DNA of 32,000 nucleotides from Candidatus Methanophagaceae archaeon (lineage in GTDB: Archaea; Halobacteriota; Syntropharchaeia; Alkanophagales; Methanospirareceae), in the NCBI GenBank assembly GCA_003194425.1, contig PQXB01000001.1, forward strand, positions 340,444-372,443, given 5' to 3'. The translations under genes were made by a program, and so were the position numbers. Numbering within the stretch: the stretch's first letter is position 1; each line of letters starts with the position of its first letter. Shown in pieces: positions 669 to 21,655 of this stretch. Under the pieces are notes generated by a model. It ran no database searches. It had not been told where the DNA came from and saw only the letters and a list, made by a program, of their open reading frames with translations.

Positions 669-731
669 CCAACTACCTAAACCAACTCCAACTACCTAAA
701 CCAACTCCAATTCCAACTACCTAAACCAACT
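669..731. repeat. 19-nt unit CCAACTACCTAAACCAACT x3 (669-687, 688-706, 713-731; 6-nt spacer before copy 3)
   Basis: Read directly; the copies are identical. The array lies between the stop of the 741-1061 gene and the ftr start, inside a 108-nt stretch (662-769) with no G on the + strand. Confidence 0.95.
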
Positions 732-740
732 TCAACCACC

Positions 741-1061
741 TTAACCCACTTCAACCCCTTCTCCTTCTCGCCCTCTTCCCGCACCCGACTTCTTCCCGCC
801 GGCAGTCCCAGCAGGCAACCGCTTCATCTCCGGCGGCACCTTCACCCTCAACACATTCGTAGAGCGAACGTGGTAAACCGGGTCGCCCGTCATCGGGTCG
901 TAGTTCTCGGTCCGAATAATGCTGCTCACAATCGTCTTGAACCGCAGCACCGTCCCGTCCTCCAACTTGTACTCGTTCCAATCCTCTTTCACCGTCTCAA
1001 AGTCCACATCCATCGCTTCTATTTCCTGCCCGTTCGGCAAACGCACTTTCACTTTCCTCAC
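741..1061 (-). CDS. small hypothetical protein (106 aa), GTG start
   Basis: From the ORF track. The sequence is non-repetitive (VRLPNGQEIEAMDVDFETVKEDWNEYKLEDGTVLRFKTIV...) with a G/R/E low-complexity tail. The first codon is GTG (1061-1059). A TATA-like TTTAAATAG about 29 nt upstream would fit a leaderless or short-leader transcript. No family recognised. Confidence 0.55.
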   Translation of the reverse strand: MRKVKVRLPNGQEIEAMDVDFETVKEDWNEYKLEDGTVLRFKTIVSSIIRTENYDPMTGDPVYHVRSTNVLRVKVPPEMKRLPAGTAGGKKSGAGRGREGEGVEVG

Positions 1062-1079
1062 CCTTTTCTTATTTCTACT

Positions 1080-1119
1080 CTAACCTATTTAAACCAAAAC
1101 TAACCTATTTAAACCAAAA
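1080..1119. repeat. 20-nt unit CTAACCTATTTAAACCAAAA x2, each copy carrying a TATA-box-like TATTTAAA; degenerate ACCAAAA-type units continue to ~1156
   Basis: Read directly (1080-1099 equals 1100-1119). It sits in the divergent intergenic region between the 741-1061 (-) and 1184-1600 (+) genes and is part of a 113-nt G-free tract (1044-1156). Confidence 0.9.
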
Positions 1120-1183
1120 ACCAAAATACAAAAACCAAAATAAAAAAACCAAAAAAGGAGAAGAAGAAAAAGAGAAGAACAAA

Positions 1184-1600
1184 ATGGACGCGAAGCTGTT
1201 CTTGGCGGCACTCGCAGTCTGGGGTGCTTTTGCGGTTGCAGGCATTCTGAACGGGGTGTTTAGAGAGTCCTTTCTCGCACCTAAAGTAAGCGAGCACGCA
1301 AGTCACGTTCTCAGCACACTCGTTTTGGTCGGCGTTATTTTTGCAGGGAGTTTTCTGTTCCTTCTCGTCCTCGCTAACTTGGAAATTGACTACAGCAAGG
1401 CGGATTTGGTTCTGGTCGGAGTGGTTTGGGTGGTTTTAACAGTCGTCTTTGAGTTTGGTTTCGGGCATTTTGTGGCAGGCAATTCTTGGAGCACTCTTCT
1501 CACTGACTACAACCTTCTTAACGGGCGGGTTTGGAGTCTCGTGCTGTTAGCCGTCTTCGTCGCACCTTCGTTCTGGGGCTGCATTTTCCAGAAAATATGA
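1184..1600 (+). CDS. small integral membrane protein (138 aa, about 4 TM helices), function unknown
   Basis: From the ORF track, with an ATG start. There are four hydrophobic stretches: LFLAALAVWGAFAVAGIL, VLSTLVLVGVIFAGSFLFLLVL, LVLVGVVWVVLTVVFEFGF and VWSLVLLAVFVAPSFW. The gene ends 13 nt before queC. Confidence 0.6.
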   Translation: MDAKLFLAALAVWGAFAVAGILNGVFRESFLAPKVSEHASHVLSTLVLVGVIFAGSFLFLLVLANLEIDYSKADLVLVGVVWVVLTVVFEFGFGHFVAGNSWSTLLTDYNLLNGRVWSLVLLAVFVAPSFWGCIFQKI

Positions 1601-1612
1601 GAGGGGTTAAAA

Positions 1613-2425
1613 ATGAGAAGAGTAAAGACGAGGACAAAACCAAAACCAAAACAAAAAAACAAAACCGCAGTCTGCGTCTGCTCTGGCGGGGTGGATTCCA
1701 CGGTCGCTGCGACTGTCGCCGCACGCGAAGGCTACGAGTTGCGCCTCTTCCACGCGTCCTACGGGCAGCGGGCGGAACGGCAGGAGAAAGAAGCGGTCGT
1801 GAAAATCGCCGGTTACTTTGGTGTGGGTGCGAAGGATTTAAAATTCGCGGAAATTCCGTTCTTGAAGGAACTCGGTGGCTCGGCACTGACAGACCTCGAG
1901 AGAGAAGTCCCAGTTGGAGAAGAGGTGAAGTTAAATGAAAACGGAGAAACAGGGGGAGAAACAAGAGAAGCAGGAGAAGCAGGAGAAGCAGGAGAAGCAG
2001 GAGAAGCAGGAGAAGCAGGGACAAAGACGCCGTCTACTTGGGTGCCGTGCAGGAACTTGGTTCTTTTGGCAACTGCTTGTGCCTACGCAGAGGTAGTCTC
2101 CGCAGACGCCTTGTTCGTGGGCTTCAACGCCGAAGAGGCAAGGTCGTACCCTGACAACGAGAAGGAGTTCGTTGTGCGGTTCAACGCGGTCTTGGAGAAG
2201 GCGGTGGCTTCTTTTTCGCAGCCGCCGACGGTTAGGGCGCCGCTGGCGGATTTGTTGAAGTCGGGTGTGGTAAAGAAGGGGGTAGAAGTTGGGGCGCCGT
2301 TGCACCTGACTTACTCCTGCTACTTAGGTGGCAAGAAGCACTGCGGGGTCTGCGAGTCCTGCCTTCGTCGGCGGAGAGGGTTTAGAGAAGCTGGTGTAGA
2401 GGACCCGACCGAGTACATTTTTTAG
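1613..2425 (+). CDS. queC: 7-cyano-7-deazaguanine synthase QueC
   Basis: PP-loop motif CVCSGGVDST near the N-terminus. The C-terminal Cys cluster (SCYLGGKKHCGVCESCLRRRRGF) is typical of QueC. ATG start with GAGGGG upstream. The protein carries an in-frame GEA repeat insert and a 17-aa K/T/P-rich N-terminal extension encoded by A/C-rich DNA. Confidence 0.9.
   Translation: MRRVKTRTKPKPKQKNKTAVCVCSGGVDSTVAATVAAREGYELRLFHASYGQRAERQEKEAVVKIAGYFGVGAKDLKFAEIPFLKELGGSALTDLEREVPVGEEVKLNENGETGGETREAGEAGEAGEAGEAGEAGTKTPSTWVPCRNLVLLATACAYAEVVSADALFVGFNAEEARSYPDNEKEFVVRFNAVLEKAVASFSQPPTVRAPLADLLKSGVVKKGVEVGAPLHLTYSCYLGGKKHCGVCESCLRRRRGFREAGVEDPTEYIF
1965..2018. repeat. 9-nt unit GAGAAGCAG x6, in frame inside queC (encodes EAGEAGEAG...)
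   Basis: Read directly; perfect copies at 1965-2018. Confidence 0.95.
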
Positions 2426-4017
2426 TTCAACTCAATCGTCGCAGCGTTTGGGTCCAACCCCTTCCACCTCACCTTAAACCCGAGCTCTGCCAACACCTCG
2501 TCAGGATTTGGCAACCCCAACCCCTCAATTACCCGCCTCGCCTCGGCGTACAACCTTACACCGGCAAGTCTGCCCTCCACCTCATTTAACAACCCCCTTT
2601 TTACCACCACCTCTTTAAACACAACAAAATCCGAGTAACCCGGAGCCTTCAAGCACGCTCTCACCGCCTCCTTACCCACCTTGTACCGCGTAGCAAGATC
2701 CTTGATAAAAATTATTCCGCCCTCGAGACAAATCTCCACACTACTCAAACTTTCCACCTGCCTCCGCGTCTCCTCTGTCTCAATCTTCGCCAAATGCCAA
2801 AGCACCTCGCCGAGAGGGACTTTTCGGGTGTAAAGAATCGTAGGGTGTCCAAGATCCAAATCGAAGTTCAGGAGGTTGAAGCACGCGAGGTTGCTGTTAA
2901 GAGCGACCAAAATGTTAAACGGCAGAGCCCGCAGCTTCGAGAACTTCTTTCTCAGGTAGTCCGCCGTCCAGAACCCCACGATTTCAAAATAAACCTCCAC
3001 TCCCTCCGCCTCTTTGTGCTTGAACTTAAAGTCGGGCAGGAAGACGCCCTTGCCCGTGAAAATCGCATTCGGCTCTCTCACCAACTCCCAACTCTCCGCC
3101 GCCGGCGTTGCTAAAAATTCGTTGTAAAATTTCTCTTCGACGCGGCTGTCAAACACGGGCTGCTCCTTCTTTGTCTCACTCTCTCGGCTCGTCGTCAGCA
3201 AACCCTTGCTCCTGCTGCTGTCCAGGAGAAAATGGTAAATTTGGGGAGTCCTGTCTCGCCTGACGACAACCTCAGCGTCCAGCGCCCACTCGTCGCTGCG
3301 GACTACCGCGGGAAGCAATTTCGCCAACGCCGTGCCGTACCGCTCGCTCAACTTCAGCAGCGACGACGCACCCTCAATCCTTATTTTTATTTTTCCACCA
3401 CTCCCCCCACCTTTCGGCGAGTACATCAAGCCGTTCTTCTTAACCGCCCTGAAAATCTCTTTAAATCCGCTCTTGAACTCGAGTGTCATTCCCGTAGACT
3501 TGAACAACAGCGTTTGAGCAAGCGAAAGGTTGTAGGACCGCAACAACTCCTCAGGCGTTAAACTTGAAGCCGTAAAATCCGCCAAAACAACCTCCGATTC
3601 CAGGTCCGACCACAGAGACCGCTCCAAATCCGCAGCCGAGACGCCTAACCTCGCCGCAACATTTTCAACCACCTCCTCCCTTGCTTCTCGGCTCGTGACT
3701 CTTCCGCTGCTCGCACTGCTCGCCGCCTCGAAGACCGCCCGCCTCGCCAGTACAGGTTCAACCGCAAACTCGGACTTAAAGACGCACCGCCGCTCCAGAA
3801 GCGTTCTCAAGCCCCGGACGAGTTTGAAGTTCAAGCCCTGCTCCTGCTCAAACTCCGCAAATATTTCGTCGATTTCGCTCCTCTTTCTGCCCGCGAAATT
3901 TTTATAAACCGCTCCCACCTCCGCAGCCAACTCCAAACGCTCCGCGTCCAACTTTGCGAAGACTGGATAAATTCGGTCCTTCTTCGTCCTCGTGACTAGC
4001 AGGTCAGCCGGCAACAT
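2422..4017 (-). CDS. bax1: Bax1 (DUF790) nuclease, the XPB-associated endonuclease
   Basis: Lies immediately downstream of, and overlapping, the XPB gene, which is the canonical archaeal xpb-bax1 arrangement. The N-terminus MLPADLLVTRTKKDRIYPVF and the C-terminal block VEVYFEIVGFWTADYLRKKFSKL match DUF790 as I recall it. The ORF track extends to 4053 through a TTG codon (MRGDAKTKTKTK). I prefer the ATG at 4017, which overlaps the xpb stop by 14 nt. Confidence 0.8.
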   Translation of the reverse strand: MLPADLLVTRTKKDRIYPVFAKLDAERLELAAEVGAVYKNFAGRKRSEIDEIFAEFEQEQGLNFKLVRGLRTLLERRCVFKSEFAVEPVLARRAVFEAASSASSGRVTSREAREEVVENVAARLGVSAADLERSLWSDLESEVVLADFTASSLTPEELLRSYNLSLAQTLLFKSTGMTLEFKSGFKEIFRAVKKNGLMYSPKGGGSGGKIKIRIEGASSLLKLSERYGTALAKLLPAVVRSDEWALDAEVVVRRDRTPQIYHFLLDSSRSKGLLTTSRESETKKEQPVFDSRVEEKFYNEFLATPAAESWELVREPNAIFTGKGVFLPDFKFKHKEAEGVEVYFEIVGFWTADYLRKKFSKLRALPFNILVALNSNLACFNLLNFDLDLGHPTILYTRKVPLGEVLWHLAKIETEETRRQVESLSSVEICLEGGIIFIKDLATRYKVGKEAVRACLKAPGYSDFVVFKEVVVKRGLLNEVEGRLAGVRLYAEARRVIEGLGLPNPDEVLAELGFKVRWKGLDPNAATIELN

Positions 4018-5452
4018 TTTTGTCTTGGTTTTTGTTTTTGCGTCTCCTCGCAATTCCCACCTCGGTCGTCCGTTTTGAGACGATTTCGTAGAGAACCGCC
4101 AGCTTCTCTTTTTTCCCCTTCCCCTTTCCCTTCCCTGTCTCCGTCTTCCGCAGAATCCGACCCAGTCGCTGCTTGTATTCCCGCCTGCTCCCGCTCCCGC
4201 TCAAAATAACGCCAACCGACGCCTCTGGAACATCAATTCCCTCCTCCAGAACCTTTGAAGTTACCACCACTTTGTACCTCCCGTCTCGGAACTTCTCCAA
4301 GATTTCCGCACGCTCCTCTTTCGGCGTGGTGTGCGTGATTGCGGGAACGAGGAACTCTCGGGAGATTGCGTAGACCAGAGAATTGTGCTCCGTGAAAATA
4401 ATTATTCGCTCGCCGAAGTGCCGGTCCAGAATTTCGGCAAGAGCCTTCAACTTAGTGCTCGAGTTCAAAGCGATTCTCCTCGCCCGGTTCCTCGCCAGCA
4501 GAGCCTCTCTCGCACCCGCGTCCCGACCGGCTCGCATAACGAGCAGCCTGAAATCCCGGGGCGACCGCAGGACAACGCCCTTCTGCTTCAAGAAATCTGT
4601 GAAAACGGCGTGGTATTTTTCGTACTCCTCCCTCTCTTCCCCCGTCAAATCGGTAACGACCCGCCTCGTCGTGTAGTTTGCCAAATGCCGCCCCGCCAGC
4701 TTTTCTACGCTGATTTCATAAACCTTCCCCCCCACCAGCCTCTCGAGGTCTGCGTGCAGTCCGTCCTCGCGCTCGTAAGTCGCGGTCAAGCCCAGCCTGT
4801 ACGGAGCGACAAACATCTCGGCGATGCTCGCAAACCCCGGCGAAGGCAGGTGGTGAACCTCGTCGAAGACCAAGAAGAGAAACCTGTTCCCCAGCTCCTC
4901 CGCCCTCAAGTACGCGGTCTCGTAGGTCGAGACTGTTAGTGGCTTCAAAATGTGCGCCTCGCCGCTGTAAGTCCCTACCTCAACTTCAGCTCCCTCTCCC
5001 CCTCCCTTTCCCCCTCCCTCTCCCCCTGTCCCCAACCGCCTCTCCAGTTCCCTCTTCCACTGCCGAACCAACTCCAAAGTCGGCACAACTACCAGCGTTG
5101 GAACATTCAGCACCGAAATCGCCTTTATTCCGACCACTGTCTTGCCCGCGCCGGTAGGCAGGACCAACGCACCTCGCCTCGTCTGCAGCCATTTTTTTAA
5201 TGCCTCCTCCTGGTAGTCGTGCAGCCTCAACCCCAACTCACAGCAGCTCAAATCCTGCATCGGCAGCAAGTCCAGAACCTTGTCCTCGTACTCGAGCCCC
5301 GAAAGTTTCAAGTAGCCCACCAAATCCTCGTAAAACATCGCGAGGCACCTGTAGCACCCCAACCGCTCGTCCCACGCAGTGTGCGGCAGTCTGAAATTGC
5401 TGGCTACTACTACCGTCCCCTTCGCAAAGCTCAAACTTATCATTCTCCTCAC
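4004..5452 (-). CDS. xpb: XPB/Rad25-type SF2 DNA helicase
   Basis: Walker A LPTGAGKT, motif II FDEVHHL, the XPB-specific RED motif (TYEREDG), and the C-terminal helicase block VTSKVLEEGIDVPEASVGVILSGSGSRREYKQRLGRILR. The track start at 5452 is GTG, with the first ATG at 5443. Low-complexity inserts are GTGGEGGGKGGGEGAEVEVG and KTETGKGKGKGKKEK. Confidence 0.88.
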   Translation of the reverse strand: MRRMISLSFAKGTVVVASNFRLPHTAWDERLGCYRCLAMFYEDLVGYLKLSGLEYEDKVLDLLPMQDLSCCELGLRLHDYQEEALKKWLQTRRGALVLPTGAGKTVVGIKAISVLNVPTLVVVPTLELVRQWKRELERRLGTGGEGGGKGGGEGAEVEVGTYSGEAHILKPLTVSTYETAYLRAEELGNRFLFLVFDEVHHLPSPGFASIAEMFVAPYRLGLTATYEREDGLHADLERLVGGKVYEISVEKLAGRHLANYTTRRVVTDLTGEEREEYEKYHAVFTDFLKQKGVVLRSPRDFRLLVMRAGRDAGAREALLARNRARRIALNSSTKLKALAEILDRHFGERIIIFTEHNSLVYAISREFLVPAITHTTPKEERAEILEKFRDGRYKVVVTSKVLEEGIDVPEASVGVILSGSGSRREYKQRLGRILRKTETGKGKGKGKKEKLAVLYEIVSKRTTEVGIARRRKNKNQDKNVAG

Positions 5453-6393
5453 TCAATCTTTTTGATATATTTGGAGAAAGTCTCGCTGAAAGTTTTCATC
5501 TGCTCGGCACCCCACTCAACCAAACCCTCTTTCTCCTCCTCGTTCAGCGATTTTAGAATACCTGAGTTTTCTCGATAAATAACAATTCTGCAAGCCCTTC
5601 TTGTCTCTAACTCCTCCCACTCTACTCCTTCAATTTCTAAATCTATTTCGGCTTTGTGGCTCTTCAACTCGTCAAAGATTCTTTTGTTCTCTGTTCCGTT
5701 GCCAGTGTCAATGTACAGCTCAACCGAAAAGCGATTCCTCCTTCTACTTAATGTCCAATTGAAAGACAACCCACTCTTACCAGCACCAAAACTCAGCCAA
5801 TTTTGAGGTAGGGCTTTCACCTTTCTGAACTTGGGATTAATCTCTGAATAAAAATCGACCAATTTAGAAAAAAAATCACGATAAATTTCATCCATCTCAC
5901 TTGTCGTAGTTGAACTTTTTATGTTTCTTTCCCAGTCATTTGGTTTTACAACGACCCGAAAATCAACAGCAGGGTTCGAGTCGTCGATTGAAAATGCGTG
6001 AACTTCTACGCCAAAGAACAAAATATCGGAGAAACAATTTTCATTTAGCCACTTCAGTGCCTTTTTATGCTCGTCTCTCAATTCCTTGGCGACCCAAACA
6101 ACGAACCCCGCGTCAACACCTGCGGAATAAGTTATTAATTGACCGAGGTGGGGGTGGTCGGTTGGTTCTAACTGATTTTCGACAGCAACGATCTTATTGG
6201 AGTTGGCGTCTTTTCCGATTAGGTCTAACCTAAAGCCGCCAATATTCTCTTCGGTTTCCACGTCAATTATTTCAATGCCCAACTTTTCCGAGAGCAAATC
6301 AATGTTCTCCTTGAGCCACGGCGTAAATTCCTTGTCCTCCTTCTCCCAGATTTCCCTCAACTCAACCTCCTTTATTTCGCCTAATTTTTTCAT
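5449..6393 (-). CDS. PD-(D/E)XK-like (NucS/DUF91-type) N-terminal domain plus DUF4268-like C-terminal domain protein
   Basis: The N-terminal core FRLDLIGKDANSNKIVAVENQLEPTDHPHLGQLITY looks like a restriction-endonuclease-fold D...E-x-Q/K motif followed by the GQL(L/I)xY block seen in NucS-type nucleases. The C-terminal half (YRDFFSKLVDFYSEINPKF...WLSFGAGKSGLSFNWTL...VELYIDTG...NKRIFDEL...WEEL) resembles DUF4268 as I recall it. ATG start in an ATGA overlap with the dapB stop, and the stop overlaps the xpb GTG. The gene is markedly AT-richer than its neighbours. Confidence 0.65.
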   Translation of the reverse strand: MKKLGEIKEVELREIWEKEDKEFTPWLKENIDLLSEKLGIEIIDVETEENIGGFRLDLIGKDANSNKIVAVENQLEPTDHPHLGQLITYSAGVDAGFVVWVAKELRDEHKKALKWLNENCFSDILFFGVEVHAFSIDDSNPAVDFRVVVKPNDWERNIKSSTTTSEMDEIYRDFFSKLVDFYSEINPKFRKVKALPQNWLSFGAGKSGLSFNWTLSRRRNRFSVELYIDTGNGTENKRIFDELKSHKAEIDLEIEGVEWEELETRRACRIVIYRENSGILKSLNEEEKEGLVEWGAEQMKTFSETFSKYIKKIE

Positions 6394-7256
6394 ATTTCAG
6401 GTCCAGACTCCAGTTCCGCCATCATTTCCTCCATCGAGTAAATCCTGCACTCTTCTCTCCTGCTCTTCTCCTTACCGCAAATCCACTCAATCGCTTTTAC
6501 CGCGCCCTGAGCGAAAGCTTCTCGGCTGTGTGCGCGGTGCGTAATTTCCAGCCGTTCGCCAGTGCCTGCGAAGAGGACGGTGTGCTCGCCGACGATGTCG
6601 CCTGCTCGGACTGCGTGAACTCCGATTTCCGCGTCGGTCCGCTCGCCAGTTAAGCCGTGCCTGCCGTAGACGAAGGTTGCCGCTCCTCCTGTGGAATCAG
6701 AGAATATTTTGGAGACGATTTCAGCGGCTTTCACCGCAGTCCCGCTTGGAGCGTCCTTCTTCTGCGAGTGGTGCATTTCTACAATCTCGGCGTGGTAGTG
6801 GTACGCCTGAAGCTGCCTCGCCGCTTCGGCAACCAACCTCCAGAAAACATTCACGCCGATTGAGAAGTTAGGCGAGAAAATGGCAGGCACGCGGTCTTTT
6901 ACGGCGTCCTCCATCGTTTTGAACTGCTCTGCCGAGAAGCCTGTTGTGCCGACCACGAGTTTTATTTTGTTCCGAGCAGCGATTTTCACATTCTCAACCC
7001 CCGCCGCTGCGTTCGTGAAATCCACAAGCACCTCCGCCTCGACCGCCCTCAAGACCTTCTCCATCTCGTCCGGGTCTGGACTCGAGACTTTTAGTTTTGC
7101 TCCCGGTGCAACCTCTTCGCCAACGCCGTTCAAGTCAAAGCCCGCGACCAACTCCAAGTCCAAATTCCCGCCACCTCTCGCTGCCTCTAAAATGCTCTTC
7201 ACGACCTGACCGCCCATTCTTCCCCTCGCTCCCGCGACCGCTACTTTTATTGTCAT
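6390..7256 (-). CDS. dapB: 4-hydroxy-tetrahydrodipicolinate reductase DapB
   Basis: N-terminal Rossmann motif KVAVAGARGRMGG. The blocks SPNFSIGVN, EIVEMHHSQKKDAPSGTA and THRAHSREAFAQGAVKA are typical DapB. Confidence 0.92.
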   Translation of the reverse strand: MTIKVAVAGARGRMGGQVVKSILEAARGGGNLDLELVAGFDLNGVGEEVAPGAKLKVSSPDPDEMEKVLRAVEAEVLVDFTNAAAGVENVKIAARNKIKLVVGTTGFSAEQFKTMEDAVKDRVPAIFSPNFSIGVNVFWRLVAEAARQLQAYHYHAEIVEMHHSQKKDAPSGTAVKAAEIVSKIFSDSTGGAATFVYGRHGLTGERTDAEIGVHAVRAGDIVGEHTVLFAGTGERLEITHRAHSREAFAQGAVKAIEWICGKEKSRREECRIYSMEEMMAELESGPEI

Positions 7257-7431
7257 AAATTATAAAATCTCCTCTACGGTCTTAAGTTCAATCTCCAGCC
7301 CGTCCTGTAGTCGAGCCCTGTCGAGCCCTTGCCGTCTCTTCGTTTGCACCTTTACCGAAGCTAAAAGCAACAACGACCCCTCTTTTCCGTCCCGCCCGTC
7401 TCAACGCGGTGGCACTCTCAGCCACTCAACT

Positions 7432-8061
7432 TCAAGTGGTAGTTTTCACTAAAGCCTCCACCGCAAAAAGAACTTTTTCAGCGACTTTGTGGGGTTCTTC
7501 TGCCCCGTTTAGCCGCACCAAACTCAAAGGAAGGTCGTTAAAAAGTCGCTCGTAAACCCCCTCAATTTTCTCGAGGAACTCGGTGTTGCTCTCAAATCTG
7601 TCGTTCGCTCGGTCGTTTGTCCTGTTCTGCTCCCCTTTCCTGCGGTACGCGGTCTCAACTGGCACTTCAAGATAAAAGACGAGGCTGGGTGTAGTCAGAT
7701 TTAACAATTTTACCACCTCCTTCGCCGCCTCGTAGTCAAACCCGCTCGCAGACTGGTAGGCAAGGGTAGACAAGAAATACCTGTCCAAAATAACGACCCA
7801 GCCGTCTTGAAGCAGTCCCCTCACCCGCCCTTGGTCTTTAACAATGTCCAGCAAGAAGAGCAGGAACTGCTCCTCCGCGCTCAACTCAACCTCCCTTTCG
7901 AGAAACGCTTTTATTCGCTTTCCGTACTCAGACCCGTAGTCAGGGTACGAAAAAACAGCGACCTTGAACCCCCGCTGCAGTAACGCGTCCTTGAGAAGTC
8001 TTGACTGCGTTCGTTTTCCCGAGCCGTCAACACCCTCAAAATTAATCAACACTCCCTTCAT
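7432..8061 (-). CDS. tmk: thymidylate kinase
   Basis: P-loop FEGVDGSGKRTQ, a DRY motif (LDRYFLSTLAYQ), and length and layout typical of Tmk. Confidence 0.9.
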   Translation of the reverse strand: MKGVLINFEGVDGSGKRTQSRLLKDALLQRGFKVAVFSYPDYGSEYGKRIKAFLEREVELSAEEQFLLFLLDIVKDQGRVRGLLQDGWVVILDRYFLSTLAYQSASGFDYEAAKEVVKLLNLTTPSLVFYLEVPVETAYRRKGEQNRTNDRANDRFESNTEFLEKIEGVYERLFNDLPLSLVRLNGAEEPHKVAEKVLFAVEALVKTTT

Positions 8062-8100
8062 TTTACCTCTTCTATTTTACCTCTTCTATTTTACCTCTCC
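8061..8100. repeat. 14-nt unit TTTTACCTCTTCTA x2.9 spanning the tmk start codon, the 29-nt spacer and the cbiZ-fusion stop codon
   Basis: Read directly. The minus strand reads GGAGAGGTAAAA TAGAAGAGGTAAAA TAGAAGAGGTAAAA TG. Each unit carries GAGGT plus TAA. Confidence 0.95.
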
Positions 8101-12989: not shown

Positions 12990-13180
12990 ATTAAGGAAGA
13001 CAAGTTAAGATGAAAATTTCGAGGGGAAAAGGGAAAGAAGAAAGGTCTCGGTCTGCGACTACTTATTTTGTCAGCCCCTCGGGTAGCGACTCGAGTAGCG
13101 ACACAAACAGGACTTACAACTTCCGCAACGACCAAGCCGCCGATGTTGTCGCGATGGAAAGAGGCTTTGGAGGAATCAGC

Positions 13181-14374
13181 ATGAACATAGGTAGAAGCAT
13201 AACGATAACAGCAGTGCTGCTACTCGTCGTTGCAACCCTTCCGGTTGCGAGCGCGGACTGGCAGTACCAGAAACTGATAGAAATAGATCACAACAAGGTA
13301 GCTGCTGATCTGGCTGATTTCCCGGTTCTGATCAATTTAGCCTCTGATTCCGATTTAGCTGCCCACGCTCAAGATGACGGCGATGACATTGTTTTCACTA
13401 ATTCTGCGAACACCGTCAAGTTTGACCACGAGATAGAATATTTTAATGGCACAACAGGAGAATTGGTAGCATGGGTGCGGATTCCTTCCCTGTCCTCTAC
13501 AACCAATACCACTATTGTGATGCGGTACGGGAATTTAGGATGCGGAAGTCAGGAGAATGCAACCGGTGTCTGGGATGACAATTACAGACTGGTGCAGCAT
13601 CTGGAGGAGACGAGCGGGACGCATTACGATTCCACCCAATACGGAAACGACGGAACAAAGAGTGGCGAGGTAACGCAAGATGCCACGGGGATGATAGATG
13701 GAGCAGATACTTTTGGTGGCTCGGCAGATTATGTTAATTGCGGGCACGACACGAGTCTGGACATTACGGACGCGATTACGATCAGTGCGTGGGTGAAACC
13801 AGGTGAATCCGACAGTTACCAAACAATCGTTGAAAAAGCAAGTTATTATGACGACGCTTACGCACTCCTGGTCAAAAAAGACATTAAATATATAAAATTC
13901 TCGCTTATAGGAATAGACCAGCACTGGGGGTACGGACCTGTAGATTTATGGGACGGGGACTGGCATTACATCACTGGCACTTACGATAAAGACGGTGGCA
14001 GCAACAATTTGCGATTGTACGTGGATGGTAGTCGCGTAAACGATTCCACACATACAAACCCAATTGCGTCAGGCGCCGCTGACGATGTATTTGTTGGTGG
14101 GCACAATTACGATGGCAATGACTTCAATGGCACACTTGACGAGGTCAGGATTTCAGCATCTGCAAGGAGCGGGGATTGGATTTCCACCACCTACAGTAAC
14201 ACGCATTCCCCTTCTACATTTTATACCGTCGGGGATGAGCAGTCAGCAGGTCCTATGCCGCCAGTCCCTGACCTTCCAGCGATAATATTATTCGCAACCG
14301 GGCTCGCGCTGGTGGCAGTGTCTCTTGTGTTTGTGTGCAGAGGAAGCGAAAGAAGGTGGCGTGAAAAAAGATGA
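13181..14374 (+). CDS. secreted, membrane-anchored DUF2341 + LamG (concanavalin-like) domain surface protein
   Basis: The DUF2341-like N-terminal region is WQYQKLIEIDHNKVAADLADFPVLINL...DIVFT...FDHEIEYFN...LVAWVRIPSL. The LamG-like region includes FNGTLDEVRISASARSGDWISTTYSN. Signal peptide MNIGRSITITAVLLLVVATLPVASA, with GGAGG 8 nt upstream of ATG 13181. C-terminal TM anchor IILFATGLALVAVSLVFV followed by basic residues. The ORF track starts at 13010, adding 57 low-complexity residues, so the start is uncertain. Confidence 0.75.
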   Translation: MNIGRSITITAVLLLVVATLPVASADWQYQKLIEIDHNKVAADLADFPVLINLASDSDLAAHAQDDGDDIVFTNSANTVKFDHEIEYFNGTTGELVAWVRIPSLSSTTNTTIVMRYGNLGCGSQENATGVWDDNYRLVQHLEETSGTHYDSTQYGNDGTKSGEVTQDATGMIDGADTFGGSADYVNCGHDTSLDITDAITISAWVKPGESDSYQTIVEKASYYDDAYALLVKKDIKYIKFSLIGIDQHWGYGPVDLWDGDWHYITGTYDKDGGSNNLRLYVDGSRVNDSTHTNPIASGAADDVFVGGHNYDGNDFNGTLDEVRISASARSGDWISTTYSNTHSPSTFYTVGDEQSAGPMPPVPDLPAIILFATGLALVAVSLVFVCRGSERRWREKR

Positions 14375-14778
14375 AAGGAGATACAAGAATTAGCGTAAGA
14401 CTATGCAGAAGCATAAAGATAACAGCAGTGCTGCTACTCGTCGTTGCAGCCTTTTCGTCTCCGATAGCAAGCGCAGCTATTCCCTGCGGCTGTGGTGAGA
14501 TTTGCACGAACGAAACAGGCTGGTGGCACGCAGGCGGGGACTTTAACGCAGCCACGAACCCGCTCAGTGCAGCGGTGGGTACTGCGAACGCGGGCGACAC
14601 GATTTGCGTCAAAGACGGTACTTACCGCGAAAGCGTTCAGATTAGCAAAAACCACCTGACCCTCCGCTCTGAAAACGGGACTGCAAACTGCATCGTCAAT
14701 GCCTCAGGCGTACACGGATTTTGCGTTGCGCCCGAAAGAAATTTCTGTAAAATGCTTGACGAACAAAGTAGGAAGTGA
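14371..14778 (+). CDS. N-terminal fragment of a right-handed beta-helix (NosD/pectate-lyase-like) cell-surface protein; probably truncated, possible pseudogene
   Basis: Signal peptide plus CGCGEICTNETGWWHAGGDFNAATNPLSAAVGTANAGDTICVKDGTYRESVQISKNHLTLRSENG. This resembles the conserved N-terminal start of much longer archaeal beta-helix surface proteins as I recall them. Here the ORF stops about 110 residues after the signal peptide. ATGA overlap with the upstream gene. Confidence 0.5.
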   Translation: MKGDTRISVRLCRSIKITAVLLLVVAAFSSPIASAAIPCGCGEICTNETGWWHAGGDFNAATNPLSAAVGTANAGDTICVKDGTYRESVQISKNHLTLRSENGTANCIVNASGVHGFCVAPERNFCKMLDEQSRK

Positions 14779-14783
14779 AAGAG

Positions 14784-15695
14784 ATGAAAATAGAGAGACT
14801 AAAGAGGGAGAAGATATTTTTGTTTTTCATTTTTTTAGGGTTTTTTCTCGTCGCGTTCGTCTGCGTTACAGTTGGAAACCTGTTTTACGAGCAGGCAGCG
14901 GACTTTTCAGGGCTGCTTGCGGCTGCGAAGGATCCTGCGGTTTTAAGTGCGTTTTGGGTGAGCTTCTCGGCTGCGATTTGTGCCACGCTGGTTGCGTTCT
15001 TCTTTGGAGTTCCGCTGGCGTATTTCCTTGCGAGGAAGGATTTTAGGGGTAAGAGCGTTGTAGAAAGTGTCGTGGACGTTCCGCTGGTAATTCCGCACAT
15101 CGTCGCGGGGATTGCGTTGTACAGCGTTTTTATGCGCTCTGGCGTGCTGGGTGCGCCGCTTGAGCGAGTGGGAATTGCGTTTACGGACGCCTTTCCGGGA
15201 ATTGTGGTTGCGATGCTTTTCGTTAGTCTTCCGTTTTTGGTGGACGCGGCACGCGAGGGGTTCAAGGAGGTTGACCCGCGGTTAGAGAATGTTGCAAGGT
15301 CGTTGGGGGCGTCGCAGTGGCGAACGTTCTCAAAAATAACCTTCCCGCTCGCCTCTTCCTCGATTTTCAGCGGTGCGGTTCTCTGCTGGGCGCGGGGAAT
15401 AAGCGAGTTCGCTGCAGTGATGATTCTTGCCTCTTACCCGCGTTCTGCGTCAATTCTGATCGGCGACCGTTTCACCTCTTACGGCTTAAGCGGCAGCGGG
15501 CTGGTAGAAGCGGCAGGAGGAGCGGCAGGAGGAGCGGCAGGAGGAGCGGCGGCGGGTGCGCGTCCGATTTCGGTTCTGCTGATTTCAGTTTGTCTGGCGA
15601 TTTTTGTGCTACTGCGGGGGCTGCGGGGGCTGCGAGGGCTGCGGGGGCTGCGAGGGCTGCGGGGGCTGCGAGGGCGGGGAAGAAGGAGAGGGTAG
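14784..15695 (+). CDS. ABC transporter permease, ModB/WtpB/CysT (molybdate/tungstate/sulfate) type, with no adjacent binding protein or ATPase
   Basis: The blocks VVDVPLVIPHIVAGIAL, PGIVVAMLFVSLPFLV, DPRLENVARSLGASQWRTFSKITFPL and ARGISEFAAVMILASYP are typical of ModB/WtpB permeases. The track start at 14775 is GTG, with the ATG at 14784. The C-terminal region carries (AAGG)3 and (GLR)7 repeat expansions. Confidence 0.85.
   Translation: MKIERLKREKIFLFFIFLGFFLVAFVCVTVGNLFYEQAADFSGLLAAAKDPAVLSAFWVSFSAAICATLVAFFFGVPLAYFLARKDFRGKSVVESVVDVPLVIPHIVAGIALYSVFMRSGVLGAPLERVGIAFTDAFPGIVVAMLFVSLPFLVDAAREGFKEVDPRLENVARSLGASQWRTFSKITFPLASSSIFSGAVLCWARGISEFAAVMILASYPRSASILIGDRFTSYGLSGSGLVEAAGGAAGGAAGGAAAGARPISVLLISVCLAIFVLLRGLRGLRGLRGLRGLRGLRGRGRRRG
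15510..15545. repeat. 12-nt unit GCGGCAGGAGGA x3 in frame (AAGG repeats) in the last loop of the permease
   Basis: Read directly; perfect copies. Confidence 0.95.
15612..15674. repeat. 9-nt unit CTGCG(G/A)GGG x7 in frame (GLR repeats) forming the permease C-terminal tail
   Basis: Read directly. Confidence 0.95.
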
Positions 15696-15715
15696 CGGAG
15701 GGTAGCAGAGGGTAG
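15688..15715. repeat. 10-nt unit GAGGGTAGCN x2.8 spanning the permease stop codon TAG (15693-15695)
   Basis: Read directly: GAGGGTAGCG GAGGGTAGCA GAGGGTAG. Confidence 0.9.
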
Positions 15716-15738
15716 TTTTCCATTAAAAAACATTTAGT

Positions 15739-15746
15739 TTTATATA
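15739..15746 (+). promoter_or_regulatory. candidate TATA box TTTATATA for atpK, with a GAGGTGA SD-like motif at 15780-15786
   Basis: An AT-rich octamer lies 51-58 nt upstream of ATG 15797, and GAGGTGA lies 10 nt upstream of the ATG. This geometry fits an archaeal promoter plus a short leader. Not tested. Confidence 0.45.
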
Positions 15747-15796
15747 CGACAAAAACAGAGACAACACAAAAACAAAAAAGAGGTGAAGAAAGAGAA

Positions 15797-16135
15797 ATGA
15801 GGAAGGTGAAATACGGGTTTGCATTTACGCTCTGCCTGCTCCTGTTCTTTGTGGGGGTAGGAGTAGCGTCAGCGGCGGCAGCAGAAGACGGAGAAGCGGG
15901 CGGCGGCGTTAGAGACGGAGGTTGGATCGCGATGGCAGCGGGAATTGCAATGGCTGGCGGGGCACTCGGTGCAGGAATTGCAGTCTCTGGAGCGGGGACA
16001 GCAGCCGTCGGAGCCACCGCGGAGAAGCCAGAATCGTTCGGTCGTGTCCTGATCTTCGTCGCTCTTGCTGAGGCGATTGCAATCTACGGGCTCTTGATCG
16101 CTTTTATGCTCTTGACAAAGATAAGCGAGGTATAG
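15797..16135 (+). CDS. atpK: A/V-type ATP synthase proteolipid (subunit K / c), single hairpin with N-terminal leader
   Basis: Two Gly/Ala-rich helices are present. The second carries the ion-binding Glu in FVALAEAIAIYGLLIAFMLL, preceded by AEKPESFGRVLIF. This is the classical A/V-type c-subunit signature. Confidence 0.85.
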   Translation: MRKVKYGFAFTLCLLLFFVGVGVASAAAAEDGEAGGGVRDGGWIAMAAGIAMAGGALGAGIAVSGAGTAAVGATAEKPESFGRVLIFVALAEAIAIYGLLIAFMLLTKISEV

Positions 16136-16169
16136 AGCAAAGCTAGAGGAGAAGAACGCGTAGAGCGAA

Positions 16170-16412
16170 ATGCAAAATAGGAACAGTAAAGGACGAATGG
16201 AGAAGGGTGGTTGGATTCTTTTTCACGCCCTTCCCTACGCTTTTTTTATCTCTTCTTTTACAATCGGCGGTTTGTTCGGCGGTTTCGCACTCGGTAAAGA
16301 ATTAGGAGGCAGCAGTGCAGCCGGCTTCGCCTTTGCTCTACCTCTCTGCTTTCTCGGCTTCTTCGTCGGACTGTTTTTTTCTTGCTTCCTCTTGAAAGTG
16401 AGAATTTTTTAA
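16170..16412 (+). CDS. small two-TM membrane protein (80 aa); weak resemblance to AtpZ/AtpI-type ATP-synthase accessory proteins
   Basis: From the ORF track. Two hydrophobic helices are separated by GKELGGSS. Position directly after atpK is the only functional hint. The start is uncertain (ATG 16170 or 16197). Confidence 0.4.
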   Translation: MQNRNSKGRMEKGGWILFHALPYAFFISSFTIGGLFGGFALGKELGGSSAAGFAFALPLCFLGFFVGLFFSCFLLKVRIF

Positions 16413-18023: not shown

Positions 18024-18143
18024 GGGCGTGTGGCCTAGCTAGGAAATGGCGGCAGCCTCCTAACAAACAGTTTAGGCAAAAAGGGAAAGATTGTTAAAAA
18101 GGGAGAGAGCTGCAAATCACGGGTTCAAATCCCGTCACGCCCG
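18024..18143 (+). tRNA. tRNA-Arg (anticodon CCU) with a 45-nt intron at the canonical 37/38 position (intron 18063-18107)
   Basis: Folded by hand. Acceptor GGGCGTG/CACGCCC plus discriminator G. D arm GCC...GGC with GG in the loop. Anticodon stem GCAGC/GCTGC and loop CTCCTA|A. T arm ACGGG-TTCAAAT-CCCGT. CTCC (18057-18060) can pair with GGAG (18102-18105), flanked by 3-nt bulges TAA and AGA, which is a bulge-helix-bulge-like splice motif. Confidence 0.85.
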
Positions 18144-18515: not shown

Positions 18516-18516
18516 C

Positions 18517-19464: not shown

Positions 19465-19474
19465 TCGTCACAAA

Positions 19475-19894
19475 TCACAAATCCAAGCCGCAAAGTTGCG
19501 AAATCGCCTCTACTAAATCTCCTTTTGCCTCTGTCAGCGCGGCTCTCGCCTCCTCCTCGCTGCACCCCACCTTCTCCTTCACGATTTCCACATCCTCAGG
19601 AAGAATTCGCAACTCAGGCTCAGGTTCCGCCACCCCCTCTCCAACAACCTCCGTTTCAGCAGCCGATTTCGTCTTAGGGCGTTCTACAGGCGTGCCGGTT
19701 ATTTGGTACATCTTCGAGCCTGGCGTTTTCATAATCGTAACGCTCGCGTCCTTGAAAACGAGTTCTGCGTCCGCCATTTTTATCACTACCTCCTCTACGC
19801 CCTCCAACTCTTCTACATTTATCCCCACCTGCTTCATCATTTGGTCCAACTTCTTAGGACCGATTCCCACCCCTTTTCTGAATCCGCCTCGCAT
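19475..19894 (-). CDS. nac: nascent polypeptide-associated complex protein (archaeal NAC)
   Basis: NAC domain (MMKQVGINVEELEGVEEVVIKMADAELVFKDASVTIMKTPGSKMYQITG) plus a C-terminal UBA-like segment (EDVEIVKEKVGCSEEEARAALTEAKGDLVEAI). Confidence 0.9.
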   Translation of the reverse strand: MRGGFRKGVGIGPKKLDQMMKQVGINVEELEGVEEVVIKMADAELVFKDASVTIMKTPGSKMYQITGTPVERPKTKSAAETEVVGEGVAEPEPELRILPEDVEIVKEKVGCSEEEARAALTEAKGDLVEAISQLCGLDL

Positions 19895-19904
19895 TTTCCT
19901 TCCC

Positions 19905-19950
19905 CTTGTAATTTCTAAATTCTAAACCTTCTAATTTCTAAATTCTAAAC
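19905..19950. repeat. 23-nt unit CTT(G/C)TAATTTCTAAATTCTAAAC x2 in the nac / tRNA-Val divergent spacer
   Basis: Read directly (19905-19927, 19928-19950; one mismatch). Followed by TATA-like AATATTTAAAG (19951-19961). Confidence 0.9.
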
Positions 19951-19998
19951 AATATTTAAAGTAAAAACATTTAATTTAGAGAAGAGGGAGCAAAGAAG

Positions 19999-20071
19999 GG
20001 GCTCGTGGTCTAGTTGGAATGACATCGCCTTTACGAGGCGAAGGTCATGCGTTCGAATCGCATCGAGCCCA
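19999..20071 (+). tRNA. tRNA-Val (anticodon UAC)
   Basis: Folded by hand. Acceptor GGGCTCG/CGAGCCC plus discriminator A. D arm GTC-TAGTTGGAAT-GAC. Anticodon stem TCGCC/GGCGA with loop TTTACGA. T arm ATGCG-TTCGAAT-CGCAT. Followed by TTTTT. Confidence 0.92.
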
Positions 20072-20086
20072 TTTTTAGCAGTTAAA

Positions 20087-21634
20087 ATGAGAAGGGTAAT
20101 GACCGTCGGGGGTTCGGACTGCAGTGGCGGGGCGGGTGTTCAAGCCGACATAAAAACATTCTCCGCACTCGGCGTTCTCGGAACCTCGGTGCTCACCGCC
20201 GTCACCGCACAAAACTCGCACGGCGTGCAGGCGAAGCGAGAAGTGCCGGTCGAACTCGTGGAGGCACAATTTGAAGCCATTTTGAGCGAGAAGAGCGACA
20301 AGGGCTTTGCCGCAACGGTGGACTACGCGAAGACCGGAATGCTCTCCTCCTCTGCAGTGGTAGAAGCGGTGGCGAGAGGGCTTAAAGGCAAAACCAAGAG
20401 TAAGCGGTCTAAAATCCCGTTCGTGCTCGACCCTGTCTTGAGGGCGGGTTCAGCGGGTTCAGCGGGTTCAGCGGGTTCAGCGGGTTTAGGAGGGTCAGGT
20501 GGAGGCGGGGTTCTTTTGGAAGACGAGGCTTTAGAGACGCTTGTTTCGGTTCTTCTGCCGATTTGCGAGGTTGTAACGCCGAATGTTCCCGAAGCCTGCG
20601 TTCTTTCGGGCTTGGAGATAAAAAACAAAGAGGACGCAAAAGAGGCGGCACTAGAAATACACAAAATGGGCGCTCCTGCAGTAATTCTAAAAGGCGGGCA
20701 TTTAGAGCAGGAAACCGCAGCCGGGCGAGCGACAGACATAATCTACGGCGAGGAGTTCGGTTTCGAAGAAATGAGTTTGAGCCTGCTAAAAACTGGGAAA
20801 AGGAGGGTAGTGCACGGTGCGGGCTGCTCCTTCTCCGCTGCTCTTGCTGCCGAACTTGCGAAGGGCAGGGGCTTGCGAGACGCTGCTCGGTCTGCGAAGA
20901 GGTTCGTGCATTCTGCCATTTCTGTGGGCGTTCGTGTTGGGTCTTTTGTAGTGCTGGATCAGACCTGCGGGCTGCGGCGAGACGCGGACAGGTATTTCGT
21001 GCTGCAGAATGTAAAAGAGGCAGTCAGGCGGCTGAAGAACACGCCGAACTTTAAGAATTTTATTCCTGAGGTTGGAACGAACATTGGAATGGCTGTGGCG
21101 GGTGCGGAGAGCGAGTCCGAAGTCGCAGCGGTGGACGGCAGGCTAACTCCTACGAAAAGAGACGGAATTCGGGGCGGCGTAGGGGCAGGGGTAGGAGCAG
21201 GAGGAGTAGGGGAAGGAGGTGTGGAGTTTGGCGTGAGCGGGCACGTTGCGAGGCTGATTTTGGCGGGGCTGAAGCACGACGAGGAGAAGAGAAGCGCGAT
21301 TAACATAAAATACTCTGCGGAAATCGTAGAGGCGTGCAAAGACCTGGGAATGCGTGTCTTCACATTTGAGAGAGCGAAAGAGCCGACTGCGGCAGAGGGG
21401 AAGACGATGAACTGGGCGGTAAGAGAAGCGAGTAGAGAAGCGAGTAGAGAAGCGAGTAGAGAAGCGAGCAGAGAAGCGAGCAGAGAAGCAGGCGAGGAGG
21501 AGTTCTCACCAGATGTGATTTACGACCTCGGGGCTGTGGGTAAGGAGCCGATGGTTAGGATTTTTGGCAGGACCGCGGTAGAGGTGGCGGAGAAGGTGAA
21601 GAGGCTCGTTGAAAAGTTTTATCAAAAATTTTAA
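20087..21634 (+). CDS. thiDN: bifunctional ThiD (hydroxymethylpyrimidine/phosphomethylpyrimidine kinase) / ThiN (thiamine-phosphate synthase) protein
   Basis: ThiD N-terminal blocks are VMTVGGSDCSGGAGVQADIKTFSALGV, VDYAKTGML, VLDPV, VVTPN, VILKGGH and HGAGCSFSAALAAELAKG. The ThiN-like C-terminal domain includes IPEVGTNIGMAV and VDGRL. Three in-frame repeat inserts are present. Confidence 0.88.
   Translation: MRRVMTVGGSDCSGGAGVQADIKTFSALGVLGTSVLTAVTAQNSHGVQAKREVPVELVEAQFEAILSEKSDKGFAATVDYAKTGMLSSSAVVEAVARGLKGKTKSKRSKIPFVLDPVLRAGSAGSAGSAGSAGLGGSGGGGVLLEDEALETLVSVLLPICEVVTPNVPEACVLSGLEIKNKEDAKEAALEIHKMGAPAVILKGGHLEQETAAGRATDIIYGEEFGFEEMSLSLLKTGKRRVVHGAGCSFSAALAAELAKGRGLRDAARSAKRFVHSAISVGVRVGSFVVLDQTCGLRRDADRYFVLQNVKEAVRRLKNTPNFKNFIPEVGTNIGMAVAGAESESEVAAVDGRLTPTKRDGIRGGVGAGVGAGGVGEGGVEFGVSGHVARLILAGLKHDEEKRSAINIKYSAEIVEACKDLGMRVFTFERAKEPTAAEGKTMNWAVREASREASREASREASREASREAGEEEFSPDVIYDLGAVGKEPMVRIFGRTAVEVAEKVKRLVEKFYQKF
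20444..20488. repeat. 9-nt unit GCGGGTTCA x4 perfect plus one variant, in frame in thiDN (SAG repeats)
   Basis: Read directly. Confidence 0.95.
21422..21493. repeat. 12-nt unit AGAGAAGCGAG(T/C) x5 plus a partial copy, in frame in thiDN (REAS repeats)
   Basis: Read directly. Confidence 0.95.
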
Positions 21635-21655
21635 TAATAAAAGTTTTATCAAAAA
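21612..21655. repeat. 17-nt AAAAGTTTTATCAAAAA x2 (21612-21628 and 21639-21655), 10-nt spacer, bracketing the thiDN stop
   Basis: Read directly. Copy 1 encodes the last residues (EKFYQKF) of ThiDN. Copy 2 abuts the ATG of the next gene. Confidence 0.95.

Follow-up and report, generated by a model that had tools for sequence, protein, structure and literature searches.

Short tandem duplications pervade the genes and gene junctions of an ANME-1 chromosomal region and built an intergenic spacer from a gene end

The DNA analyzed here is a 32-kb stretch of contig PQXB01000001.1 (the window), which carries 31 genes in the gene model and only 1,457 nt of intergenic sequence, so that 95% of it is coding and most spacers are 10–190 nt long. 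The best matches of its proteins are to Methanophagales (ANME-1, anaerobic methanotrophic archaea). Its LeuA and HemC proteins are recorded on a 1.19-Mb NCBI contig, and the 90%-identity clusters of these 2 proteins include entries from “ANME-1 cluster archaeon ex4572_4”, “Methanophagales archaeon”, and “Ca. Methanospirareceae archaeon”. The window belongs to an ANME-1 chromosome, and short tandem repeats occur throughout this stretch, both within genes and at the junctions between them. An earlier note had listed 9 of these repeats at gene junctions and proposed a mechanism, not known to have been described as a systematic feature, by which gene ends are duplicated, abutting genes are pushed apart, and regulatory motifs are multiplied. 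All 9 repeats were recovered, within 0–5 nt of the positions given there. They are numbered J1 to J9 below, with the arrays adjoining J2 listed as J2b:

J1, 657–761 (667–755 in Tandem Repeats Finder, TRF), minus strand: 19-nt unit CTCCAACTACCTAAACCAA, 4.4 copies; alternatively 25 nt in 2.2 copies or 44 nt in 2 copies
J2a, 1080–1119, minus strand: exact 20-nt unit, 2 copies, 100% identical, with TATTTAAA in each copy
J2b, 1111–1184, plus strand: A-rich 7/14-nt arrays (AAACCAA, CAAAAACCAAAATA, AAAAAGAGAAGAAC) upstream of a 138-aa gene
J3, 7310–7329, minus strand: exact 10-nt unit GTCGAGCCCT, 2 copies, 100% identical, in the tmk–dapB spacer
J4, 8056–8098, minus strand: 14-nt unit (minus-strand AGAAGAGGTAAAAT), 3.1 copies, 96% matches
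J5, 11319–11390, plus strand: 19-nt unit, 2 copies, 94% matches (11319–11356), followed by degenerate 13/8-nt copies up to 11390
J6, 12918–12997, plus strand: 24-nt unit TTTTAAGGAGGTAAAAGAAAATAA, 3.4 copies, 92% matches, upstream of a LamG-domain gene (13010)
J7, 15687–15715, plus strand: 10-nt unit GAGGGTAGCN, 2.9 copies, beginning in the last codons of a 306-aa gene
J8, 19904–19950, minus strand: 23-nt unit, 2 copies, 95% matches, between the start of NAC (19894, minus strand) and a TTTAAATA box and tRNA-Val
J9, 21612–21655, plus strand: exact 17-mer AAAAGTTTTATCAAAAA present twice, 27 nt apart (10-nt gap)

As claimed earlier, the repeated units at 8061, 11319, 15688, and 21612 include the stop codon or last codons of the upstream gene; at 21612, these are the last codons only, not the stop. 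The earlier list was incomplete, however, as it omitted 5 junction arrays (1111–1155, 1153–1184, 12205–12229, 19468–19483, and 31197–31224), 15 strong arrays inside genes, and the tRNA-Val gene in spacer 19895–20086.

Arrays were called with TRF, those with a score of at least 50 being counted as strong, and their number was compared with that in 200 dinucleotide-preserving shuffles of each coding or intergenic segment. Contigs of the same species were collected by a metagenome scan with Ftr, followed by look-ups via DapB, LeuA, Tmk, Ftr, NAC, and the radical-SAM enzyme. This yielded about 16 conspecific contigs from independent assemblies (ENA, JGI, NCBI, and Logan), which jointly cover the whole window and are designated below by L-numbers, as are loci from other lineages. 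Most are about 99% identical to the window; L108 is 100% identical, and L113, L114, and L116 are 93–95% identical. L112/L118 correspond to GCA_026133975.1.

In total, 57 arrays were found in the 32 kb, 23 of them strong, against about 0.5 expected. Eight strong arrays touch intergenic DNA, compared to 0.29 ± 0.53 (maximum 3) in the shuffles, and 15 are purely coding, compared to 0.21. The preference for junctions that the earlier note described is a real excess, but it does not appear to amount to aiming, as coding DNA is equally abnormal. Per base, strong arrays are about 11-fold denser at junctions than in coding sequence (5.5/kb vs. 0.49/kb); in absolute numbers, the majority is intragenic. 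The repeat units span 6–44 nt, are present in 2–10 units per array, and differ at every locus. Only the arrays at 1080, 7310, 15509, 20444, and 25269 are 100% identical, while most others show 75–97% matches, and no perfect array was found in the window among those of at least 3 units and at least 50 nt.

The 2 classes of arrays differ sharply in their period. Coding arrays have periods of 9, 12, 15, 18, 27, or 36 nt, all 15 of them divisible by 3 (3n), whereas among the 8 junction arrays a single one has such a period (Fisher p = 3e-5). In base composition, the co-oriented junction arrays (657–761, 8056–8098, 11319–11390, 12918–12997, 15687–15715, and 21612–21655) are 73% purine on the sense strand, with 43% A, 29% G, and 1.3% C. 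The coding arrays contain 30% A and 40% G, against a background of 26% and 32%, and are depleted in T (11% vs. 22%). Overall, the enrichment is in purines and not in A specifically. The spacers have a G+C content of 10–53%, compared to about 53% in genes.

Several of the intragenic arrays serve as examples:

queC, 1955–2019, plus strand: in-frame 9-nt unit, 7.2 copies; strains with 2 or 6 fewer units
cbiZ-pgpA, 8657–9217, minus strand: in-frame 15-nt unit, 9.9 copies (8657–8805), and 12-nt unit, 7.8 copies (9124–9217)
306-aa gene, 15509–15675, plus strand: in-frame 12-nt unit, 3.5 copies (15509–15550), and 9/18-nt unit, 7.1 copies (15612–15675)
thiDN, 20444–21489, plus strand: in-frame 9-nt (20444–20498), 15-nt (21179–21219), and 12-nt (21422–21489) arrays

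CbiZ-PgpA is 451 aa long in the window, 417–446 aa in other strains (which carry indels of 30, 60, 90, and 36 nt), and 350 aa in a relative. Similarly, the 306-aa gene varies by 12, 9, and 18 nt among strains. ThiDN measures 515 aa in the window, 497–519 aa among strains, and 438–470 aa in other lineages, and its extra residues correspond exactly to the arrays (AGSAGS.., GVGAGVGAG, and REAS x5). Relative to the homologs, the intragenic arrays are lineage-specific insertions.

Comparison of the strains showed that nearly all indels change the number of repeat units. At positions 1–15990, 20 indel loci were found; 13 fall inside the 8.2% of sequence marked by TRF (p = 3e-10), and at 18, tandem units were gained or lost. 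Over the whole window, 46 loci carry polymorphic indels, divided as follows:

Intergenic indels: 9 loci, 6.2/kb, 5 of 21 alleles divisible by 3
Coding indels: 37 loci, 1.2/kb, 53 of 59 alleles divisible by 3

Of the 6 coding alleles that are not 3n, 4 are found 5–40 nt away from gene ends (9496, 13020, 14331, and 27654), and the remaining 2 compensate each other (13 + 26 nt), so that no frameshifting repeat variant was found within any gene body among the strain alleles of the window. The same pattern extends to 10 kb outside it. There, coding arrays with periods of 6, 12, 15, and 24 nt vary in copy number, and indels that are not 3n (20, 5/10, 5, 16, and 2 nt) are located in spacers or at gene ends, including the position directly after the ftr stop codon. 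Seven of the 9 junction arrays differ in copy number among strains, 4 of them with single-copy alleles. Single-copy alleles at 6 loci (J2 twice, J3, J8, 5565, and 9496) reveal new duplications, with 0–1 nt of microhomology at their borders. The one at 5565 is an in-frame 15-nt duplication present in other strains and not in the window.

The clearest case of a spacer arising from a gene end is J5, between the genes encoding the permease and ATPase of an ABC transporter. In 9 relatives, whose proteins are 77–86% identical, the permease stop codon is separated from the ATPase ATG by 0–1 nt. This ancestral-type junction has the form GTGAAATGA(A)ATGAAC, i.e., ..GTGAAATGA[A]ATGAACCAC.., and the relatives read ..GGGAT(A/C)GTGAA(A/G)T(G/A)A[0–1 nt]ATGAACCAC.. 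across it. In the species studied here, the same flanks enclose 54–67 nt composed of GATTGTGAAATGAAATAGA and its sub-units: the first 19-nt unit contains the permease TGA (11329–11331), the spacer (11332–11385) is 54 nt long in the window, and L101 carries one additional 13-nt unit, for a total of 67 nt. The J5 spacer was thus made from copies of the gene junction, and the pre-duplication state that the earlier note had proposed to reconstruct by syntenic comparison is recovered here.

At J4, between cbiZ-pgpA and tmk, the repeat unit includes the cbiZ-pgpA stop codon TAA, a GAGGT motif, and the AT of the tmk ATG. The TAA (8091–8093, minus strand) falls in the third 14-nt unit. The spacer (8062–8090) is 29 nt long in the window, 15 nt in L101–L104, and 55 nt in L118, corresponding to 3, 2, and 5 units, and the units of L118 duplicate the tmk ATG as well. 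Collapsed to a single unit, the junction reads GAGGTAAAATG, with a gap of 1 nt between stop and ATG. The alleles of 15, 29, and 55 nt imply growth by whole units, and by this reading of the sequence, the J4 spacer would likewise have grown out of the gene end. In L016, the 2 genes are separated by 403 nt, and no syntenic outgroup polarizes this junction. The earlier proposal that spacers are generated by gene-end duplication therefore stands at J5 and is implied at J4, but does not extend to the other junctions. The remaining arrays are in longer spacers, probably with promoters, where they have altered spacing or multiplied motifs rather than created the spacer.

At J1, a compound array lies between a 106-aa gene (741–1061, minus strand) and ftr (1–598, minus strand) and spans the stop and last codons of the former; the region is 111 nt long in the window and 83, 93, 109, or 160 nt in other strains. 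J2a contains 2 copies of the 20-mer in the window and in L101, and a single copy in L102. On the minus strand, its TTTAAATA motif begins at −32 and −52 relative to the GTG at 1061, and the proximal copy would be positioned as expected of an archaeal TATA box whose transcript has a short leader or none, given the usual placement of this element in archaeal promoters. In L021, L022, and L118, a different, 19-nt unit (CTACTCTAACCTATTTAAA) is duplicated over TATTTAAA; as the 2 units differ, the same segment has been duplicated independently. At J2b, the strains differ by 7, 8, and 14 nt, in indels of unit size. J3 is present in 2 copies in the window and L101 and in one copy in L102, L103, L104, L105, and L118, and its borders show no microhomology.

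Each unit of J6 contains AAGGAGGT and a TAA; 3 copies are found in the window, 2 in L102, and one in L101, L112, and L118, the last 3 of which carry another 13-nt duplication nearby that abuts the ATG. In the same 3 contigs, an insertion of 22 nt changes the reading frame at the N-terminus of the LamG-domain protein. At J7, TAG occurs at 15693, 15703, and 15713, so that stops in all 3 frames follow the 306-aa gene; the first (15693–15695) lies within the first 10-nt unit. This array is identical in L101, L102, L112, and L118. At J8, the second copy adds 23 nt to the distance between the box and the NAC start codon; 2 copies are present in the window, L108, and L112, and one in L113, L114, and L115.

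The first copy of J9 encodes the last codons of ThiDN (EKFYQK), without the stop, while the second adjoins the ATG of the radical-SAM gene. The array is identical in 8 strains, and the ThiDN carboxyl terminus (KFYQKF) is not conserved among homologs. The thiDN and radical-SAM genes share a reading frame (21611–21658), and removal of one 27-nt period yields an in-frame fusion (..EKFYQK-MGLKEA..). We considered whether the 27-nt periodicity marks an ancient in-frame fusion of the 2 genes. The relatives found via ThiDN and the radical-SAM gene lack synteny at J8 and J9, and these 2 junctions therefore have no outgroup.

Copying of gene signals is not confined to the listed junctions. At 9496, a 14-nt duplication in L101 (AAAATGGAAAGGAG) copies the start codon region of an NMT1-type binding protein, and the gene call in L101 shifts to the second ATG. 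The true start of this protein is probably the ATG at 9500 (MERRG..), not the one at 9491. Stop codons, this start codon, and the TTTAAATA box at 1080–1119 are all demonstrably duplicated, which bears out the earlier claim that regulatory signals are multiplied. At 16120–16175, the end of an ATP-synthase-c-like gene and the spacer behind it (16136–16169) have been swapped in L112/L118 for an unrelated tandem repeat (CAGGGCAAGGCAGGGCA, 2 copies).

The density of strong arrays is 0.72/kb in the window and 0.81/kb in the conspecific contigs (69 kb). In the relatives found via the ABC transporter and ThiDN (254 kb), it is 0.035/kb, and in ANME-1 loci with 84–89% Ftr identity, 0.15/kb. Repeats of at least 3 units, at least 50 nt, and at least 90% matches take up 1.9% of the window vs. 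0.03% of other ANME-1-like loci. Among the ANME-1 relatives compared, the pervasive repeats are specific to the lineage of this species. The outgroups used here have proteins about 64–89% identical to those of the window.

The repeats also affect how the species appears in public data. Position 1 of L109 corresponds to window position 21439, inside the thiDN array, showing that short-read contigs of the species break at arrays. A protein search with ThiDN found no conspecific protein, the best match being only 64% identical, a misleading hint that no close relatives exist; conspecific ThiDN is absent from the protein collection, and contigs break inside the thiDN repeats. An exact look-up of the window QueC gave no match either, because the repeats in QueC differ among strains. 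Public protein sets probably contain too few repeat-rich genes of this lineage, or contain them in truncated form.

The genes of the window are housekeeping genes: ftr, queC, bax1-xpb, dapB, tmk, cbiZ-pgpA, an NMT1-type ABC transporter, and genes for NAD kinase, NAC, thiDN, an AmmeMemoRadiSam radical-SAM enzyme, leuA, hemC, and flaI/flaJ-like proteins. An Rfam scan of the window returned 2 tRNAs only at the gathering score, neither of which overlaps a repeat:

19999–20071: tRNA-Val, within spacer 19895–20086
18024–18143: second tRNA match of 120 nt (50 bits; none from ARAGORN)

The second, located in the spacer that separates a DHH gene from a PRC-barrel gene, probably represents a tRNA with an intron. 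Two further regions vary among strains on a larger scale. The 135-aa ORF (open reading frame) at 14371–14778 is a remnant of a 597-aa NosD/beta-helix gene: 1,386 nt (462 codons, in frame; cf. 14733) are present in L101 and L102 and missing in the window and L112/L118. The preceding LamG-domain gene also has its end shifted, by a TG-dinucleotide indel at 14331. The FlaI/T2SSE-like ATPase gene (28549–31182) and the gene preceding it (27647–28576) are hypervariable among strains (749–906 aa), with many in-frame indels of 6–72 nt, and local nucleotide identity there in L113, L114, and L116 is far below that of the rest of the window.

The reading that we consider probable, and the simplest, is that short tandem duplication and the gain or loss of units act across the whole genome, that selection then filters the products, and that the junction excess stems from this filter and not from targeting. 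It is suggested by the 3n rule, from the confinement of frameshifts to spacers and gene ends, and from the abnormal repeat load of coding DNA, which together argue for a genome-wide process under purifying selection. Specifically, tandem duplication and unit gain and loss (units of 6–44 nt) would occur at a very high rate everywhere, with expansion and contraction within arrays likely proceeding by replication slippage. Inside genes, only multiples of 3 in tolerant parts of the protein would survive, while in spacers and the few codons at gene ends, any length would. As the genome is about 95% coding and its spacers are short, an array surviving outside genes would almost inevitably contain or adjoin a stop codon, a Shine-Dalgarno-like motif, a start codon, or a TATA box. 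Abutting genes pushed apart (J5 and J4), multiplied stops and starts, and changed promoter-to-start distances would then be by-products, which may in turn have regulatory consequences. No sign was found of the dedicated junction mechanism proposed in the earlier note; the same process operates within genes, where all periods are 3n.

Some observations fit this explanation less well. The junction excess is 5-fold for polymorphic loci and 11-fold for standing arrays, while a pure frame filter accounts for 3-fold; what remains has to be explained either by selection against insertions in proteins or by a true mutational bias favoring AT-rich spacers. The TATA-bearing segment at 1080–1119 was duplicated twice independently, and the duplication may have been favored by selection instead of being neutral. 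J7 and J9 do not vary among 5 and 8 strains, respectively, and are therefore not simply unstable. The microhomology of 0–1 nt means that the first duplication step is not classical slippage driven by microhomology. Lastly, the data cover about 42 kb, while the genome measures at least 1.19 Mb, the length of the contig.

The closest parallel described is found in the Borgs, giant linear extrachromosomal elements of Methanoperedens, whose tandem repeats occur within genes as well as between them (Schoelmerich et al. 2023, PLoS Biol, PMC9879509). Borg genic units are all divisible by 3, compared to only 14–38% of the intergenic ones, and the repeats are reported to begin within ORF ends; they occupy 0.62% of the genome, consist of perfect, A-enriched units, and are virtually absent from the genomes of the host Methanoperedens (PMC9879509). 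The repeats described here resemble them in many respects: they are arranged head to tail in genes and spacers with locus-specific units, can start in ORF ends, and are 3n in genes and mostly not between them (1 of 8 arrays and 5 of 21 alleles). They also create new low-complexity protein segments, change copy number rapidly among close relatives and within populations, and are absent from distant relatives. Their share of the sequence, 1.9% by looser criteria, is similar to or above that in Borgs. Unlike Borgs, however, the window is part of a cellular chromosome with housekeeping genes (ftr, dapB, tmk, leuA, hemC, and thiDN) rather than a linear element, and has a G+C content of 52%; its repeats are mostly imperfect (75–100% matches) where those of Borgs are perfect, and are biased towards G and A where those of Borgs are biased towards A alone.

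Dense short tandem repeats concentrated outside ORFs are also a feature of Methanosarcina, known as a repeat-rich genus. Ten Methanosarcina loci around ftr (L045, L046, L049, L050, L054, L061, L064, L073, L087, and L100) contain 0.8–1.5 strong arrays/kb, with 3.0/kb outside ORFs vs. 0.13/kb inside and 8 of the 9 ORF arrays 3n. The near-identical loci L049 and L050 differ in a 27-nt array (6.3 vs. 10.3 copies) and a 14-nt array (13.4 vs. 21.4 copies). These loci differ from the window in being about 28% non-coding (by a crude ORF proxy), in having few intragenic arrays, and in that their arrays need not touch gene ends. As they are as repeat-rich, the pattern is not unique to this ANME-1 species.

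The claim that such duplications were undescribed holds only in part, as Borg repeats follow the same rules (PMC9879509) and the Methanosarcina loci are alike. Literature searches found no paper on such repeats in ANME-1 chromosomes or quantifying them in Methanosarcina, nor any on the birth of spacers between abutting genes backed by outgroups. The Borg paper does not include outgroup-backed spacer creation between abutting genes (PMC9879509), and an ANME-1 “hotspot” paper leaves out variants of 50 bp or less (PMC13385816).

Bacterial variable-number tandem repeats (VNTRs) and contingency loci share the whole-unit copy-number polymorphism among strains, seen here for 7 of the 9 junction arrays and most strong coding arrays, and some of them lie in promoters or between promoter and start codon; here, J2 and J8 vary near putative promoters. 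Classical contingency loci switch expression on or off through frameshifting ORF repeats or −10/−35 spacing at a few specialized loci, whereas the intragenic arrays here cause no frameshift and are spread genome-wide in housekeeping genes. Short tandem duplications of roughly 5–100 nt across the genome are also a trait of rad27/FEN1 flap-endonuclease mutants and of slippage models. Duplications of the rad27/FEN1 type are flanked by short direct repeats, unlike the new duplications found here, with 0–1 nt of microhomology. The genes for replication and repair are located outside the window. Taken together, the repeats are Borg-like, VNTR-type pervasive tandem repeats, here in an ANME-1 chromosome.

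A further reading, in which the species carries a Borg-type repeat generator producing blunt duplications of 10–24 nt without microhomology at any place in a cellular chromosome and the junction arrays act as evolvable regulators that uncouple operons and retune promoters, is one we regard as tentative and hold with low confidence. We think it somewhat less plausible again that the junction repeats are selected regulatory devices in the manner of contingency loci, tuning or switching expression and the coupling of neighbors, with the excess due to positive selection. This would agree with the 2 independent duplications (19- and 20-nt units) over one TTTAAATA box at 1080–1119, with the multiplication of GAGGT and stop codon in the J4 units (and of the ATG in L118), with the 23-nt shift between TATA box and ATG in the J8 alleles, with the fixation of J7 and J9 in every strain compared, and with an excess above that of the frame filter. 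However, no motif is common to the units, each locus being different; the process is as active in genes without a link to regulation; and some variants look harmful or neutral, such as the 22-nt LamG frame shift and the 14-nt displacement of the binding-protein start.

A mutational hotspot, with AT-rich, purine-skewed spacers or transcription and translation boundaries prone to duplication and selection playing a minor role, appears improbable. The low G+C content of many spacers, the purine-rich and C-poor sense strand of the junction arrays, and the excess above 3-fold are in its favor, but G+C-rich repeats do occur in spacers (GTCGAGCCCT at 7310–7329 and a CCCG unit at 7390), the strongest arrays lie in G+C-rich coding DNA (8657, 9124, 15612, and 21422), and the strict 3n rule in genes means heavy filtering regardless.

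That the repeats are chance matches in DNA of low complexity, or artefacts of assembly, could be suspected from the AT-rich spacers, from short arrays such as 10 nt in 2 copies, and from the breakage of short-read contigs at arrays (L109 begins in the thiDN array), but we rejected this explanation, given the 8 arrays against 0.29 in dinucleotide shuffles, and give it almost no weight: the same arrays recur, differing by whole units, in independent ENA, JGI, NCBI, and Logan assemblies, reading frames are always preserved, and most junction arrays fit within a sequencing read. The same negligible probability applies to footprints of mobile elements, i.e., target-site duplications left after excision, which the blunt borders with 0–1 nt of microhomology resemble; unit lengths of 6–44 nt show no preferred or uniform size, arrays of up to 10 copies occur and gain or lose whole units, no strain among those compared has an element between copies, and transposons were rejected as no terminal inverted repeats or transposase genes were found nearby in the window. 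A clustered regularly interspaced short palindromic repeat (CRISPR) array was rejected as well, as the units (2–10 of 6–44 nt) are contiguous except for one 17-mer pair with a 10-nt gap.

The rule that repeats are multiples of 3 in genes and of any length between them, presented as a hallmark of Borgs, is now found in the chromosome of another methane-oxidizing archaeal lineage, at a repeat density 20–60 times that of related genomes. Strain alleles and outgroups together allow one to watch a spacer being born from abutting genes and stops, starts, and a TATA box being multiplied, which shows concretely how compact operons can lose translational coupling and acquire intergenic DNA. In practical terms, the repeats break short-read assemblies and move gene starts, and among strains the length of a protein can vary by as much as about 100 aa. 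The contrast between repeat-rich and repeat-poor ANME-1 provides a comparative handle on the enzyme or repair defect behind the repeats. If the activity is indeed of the Borg type, this species would offer a cellular lineage in which the mechanism of Borg repeats may be traced through repeat-rich and repeat-poor sister genomes.

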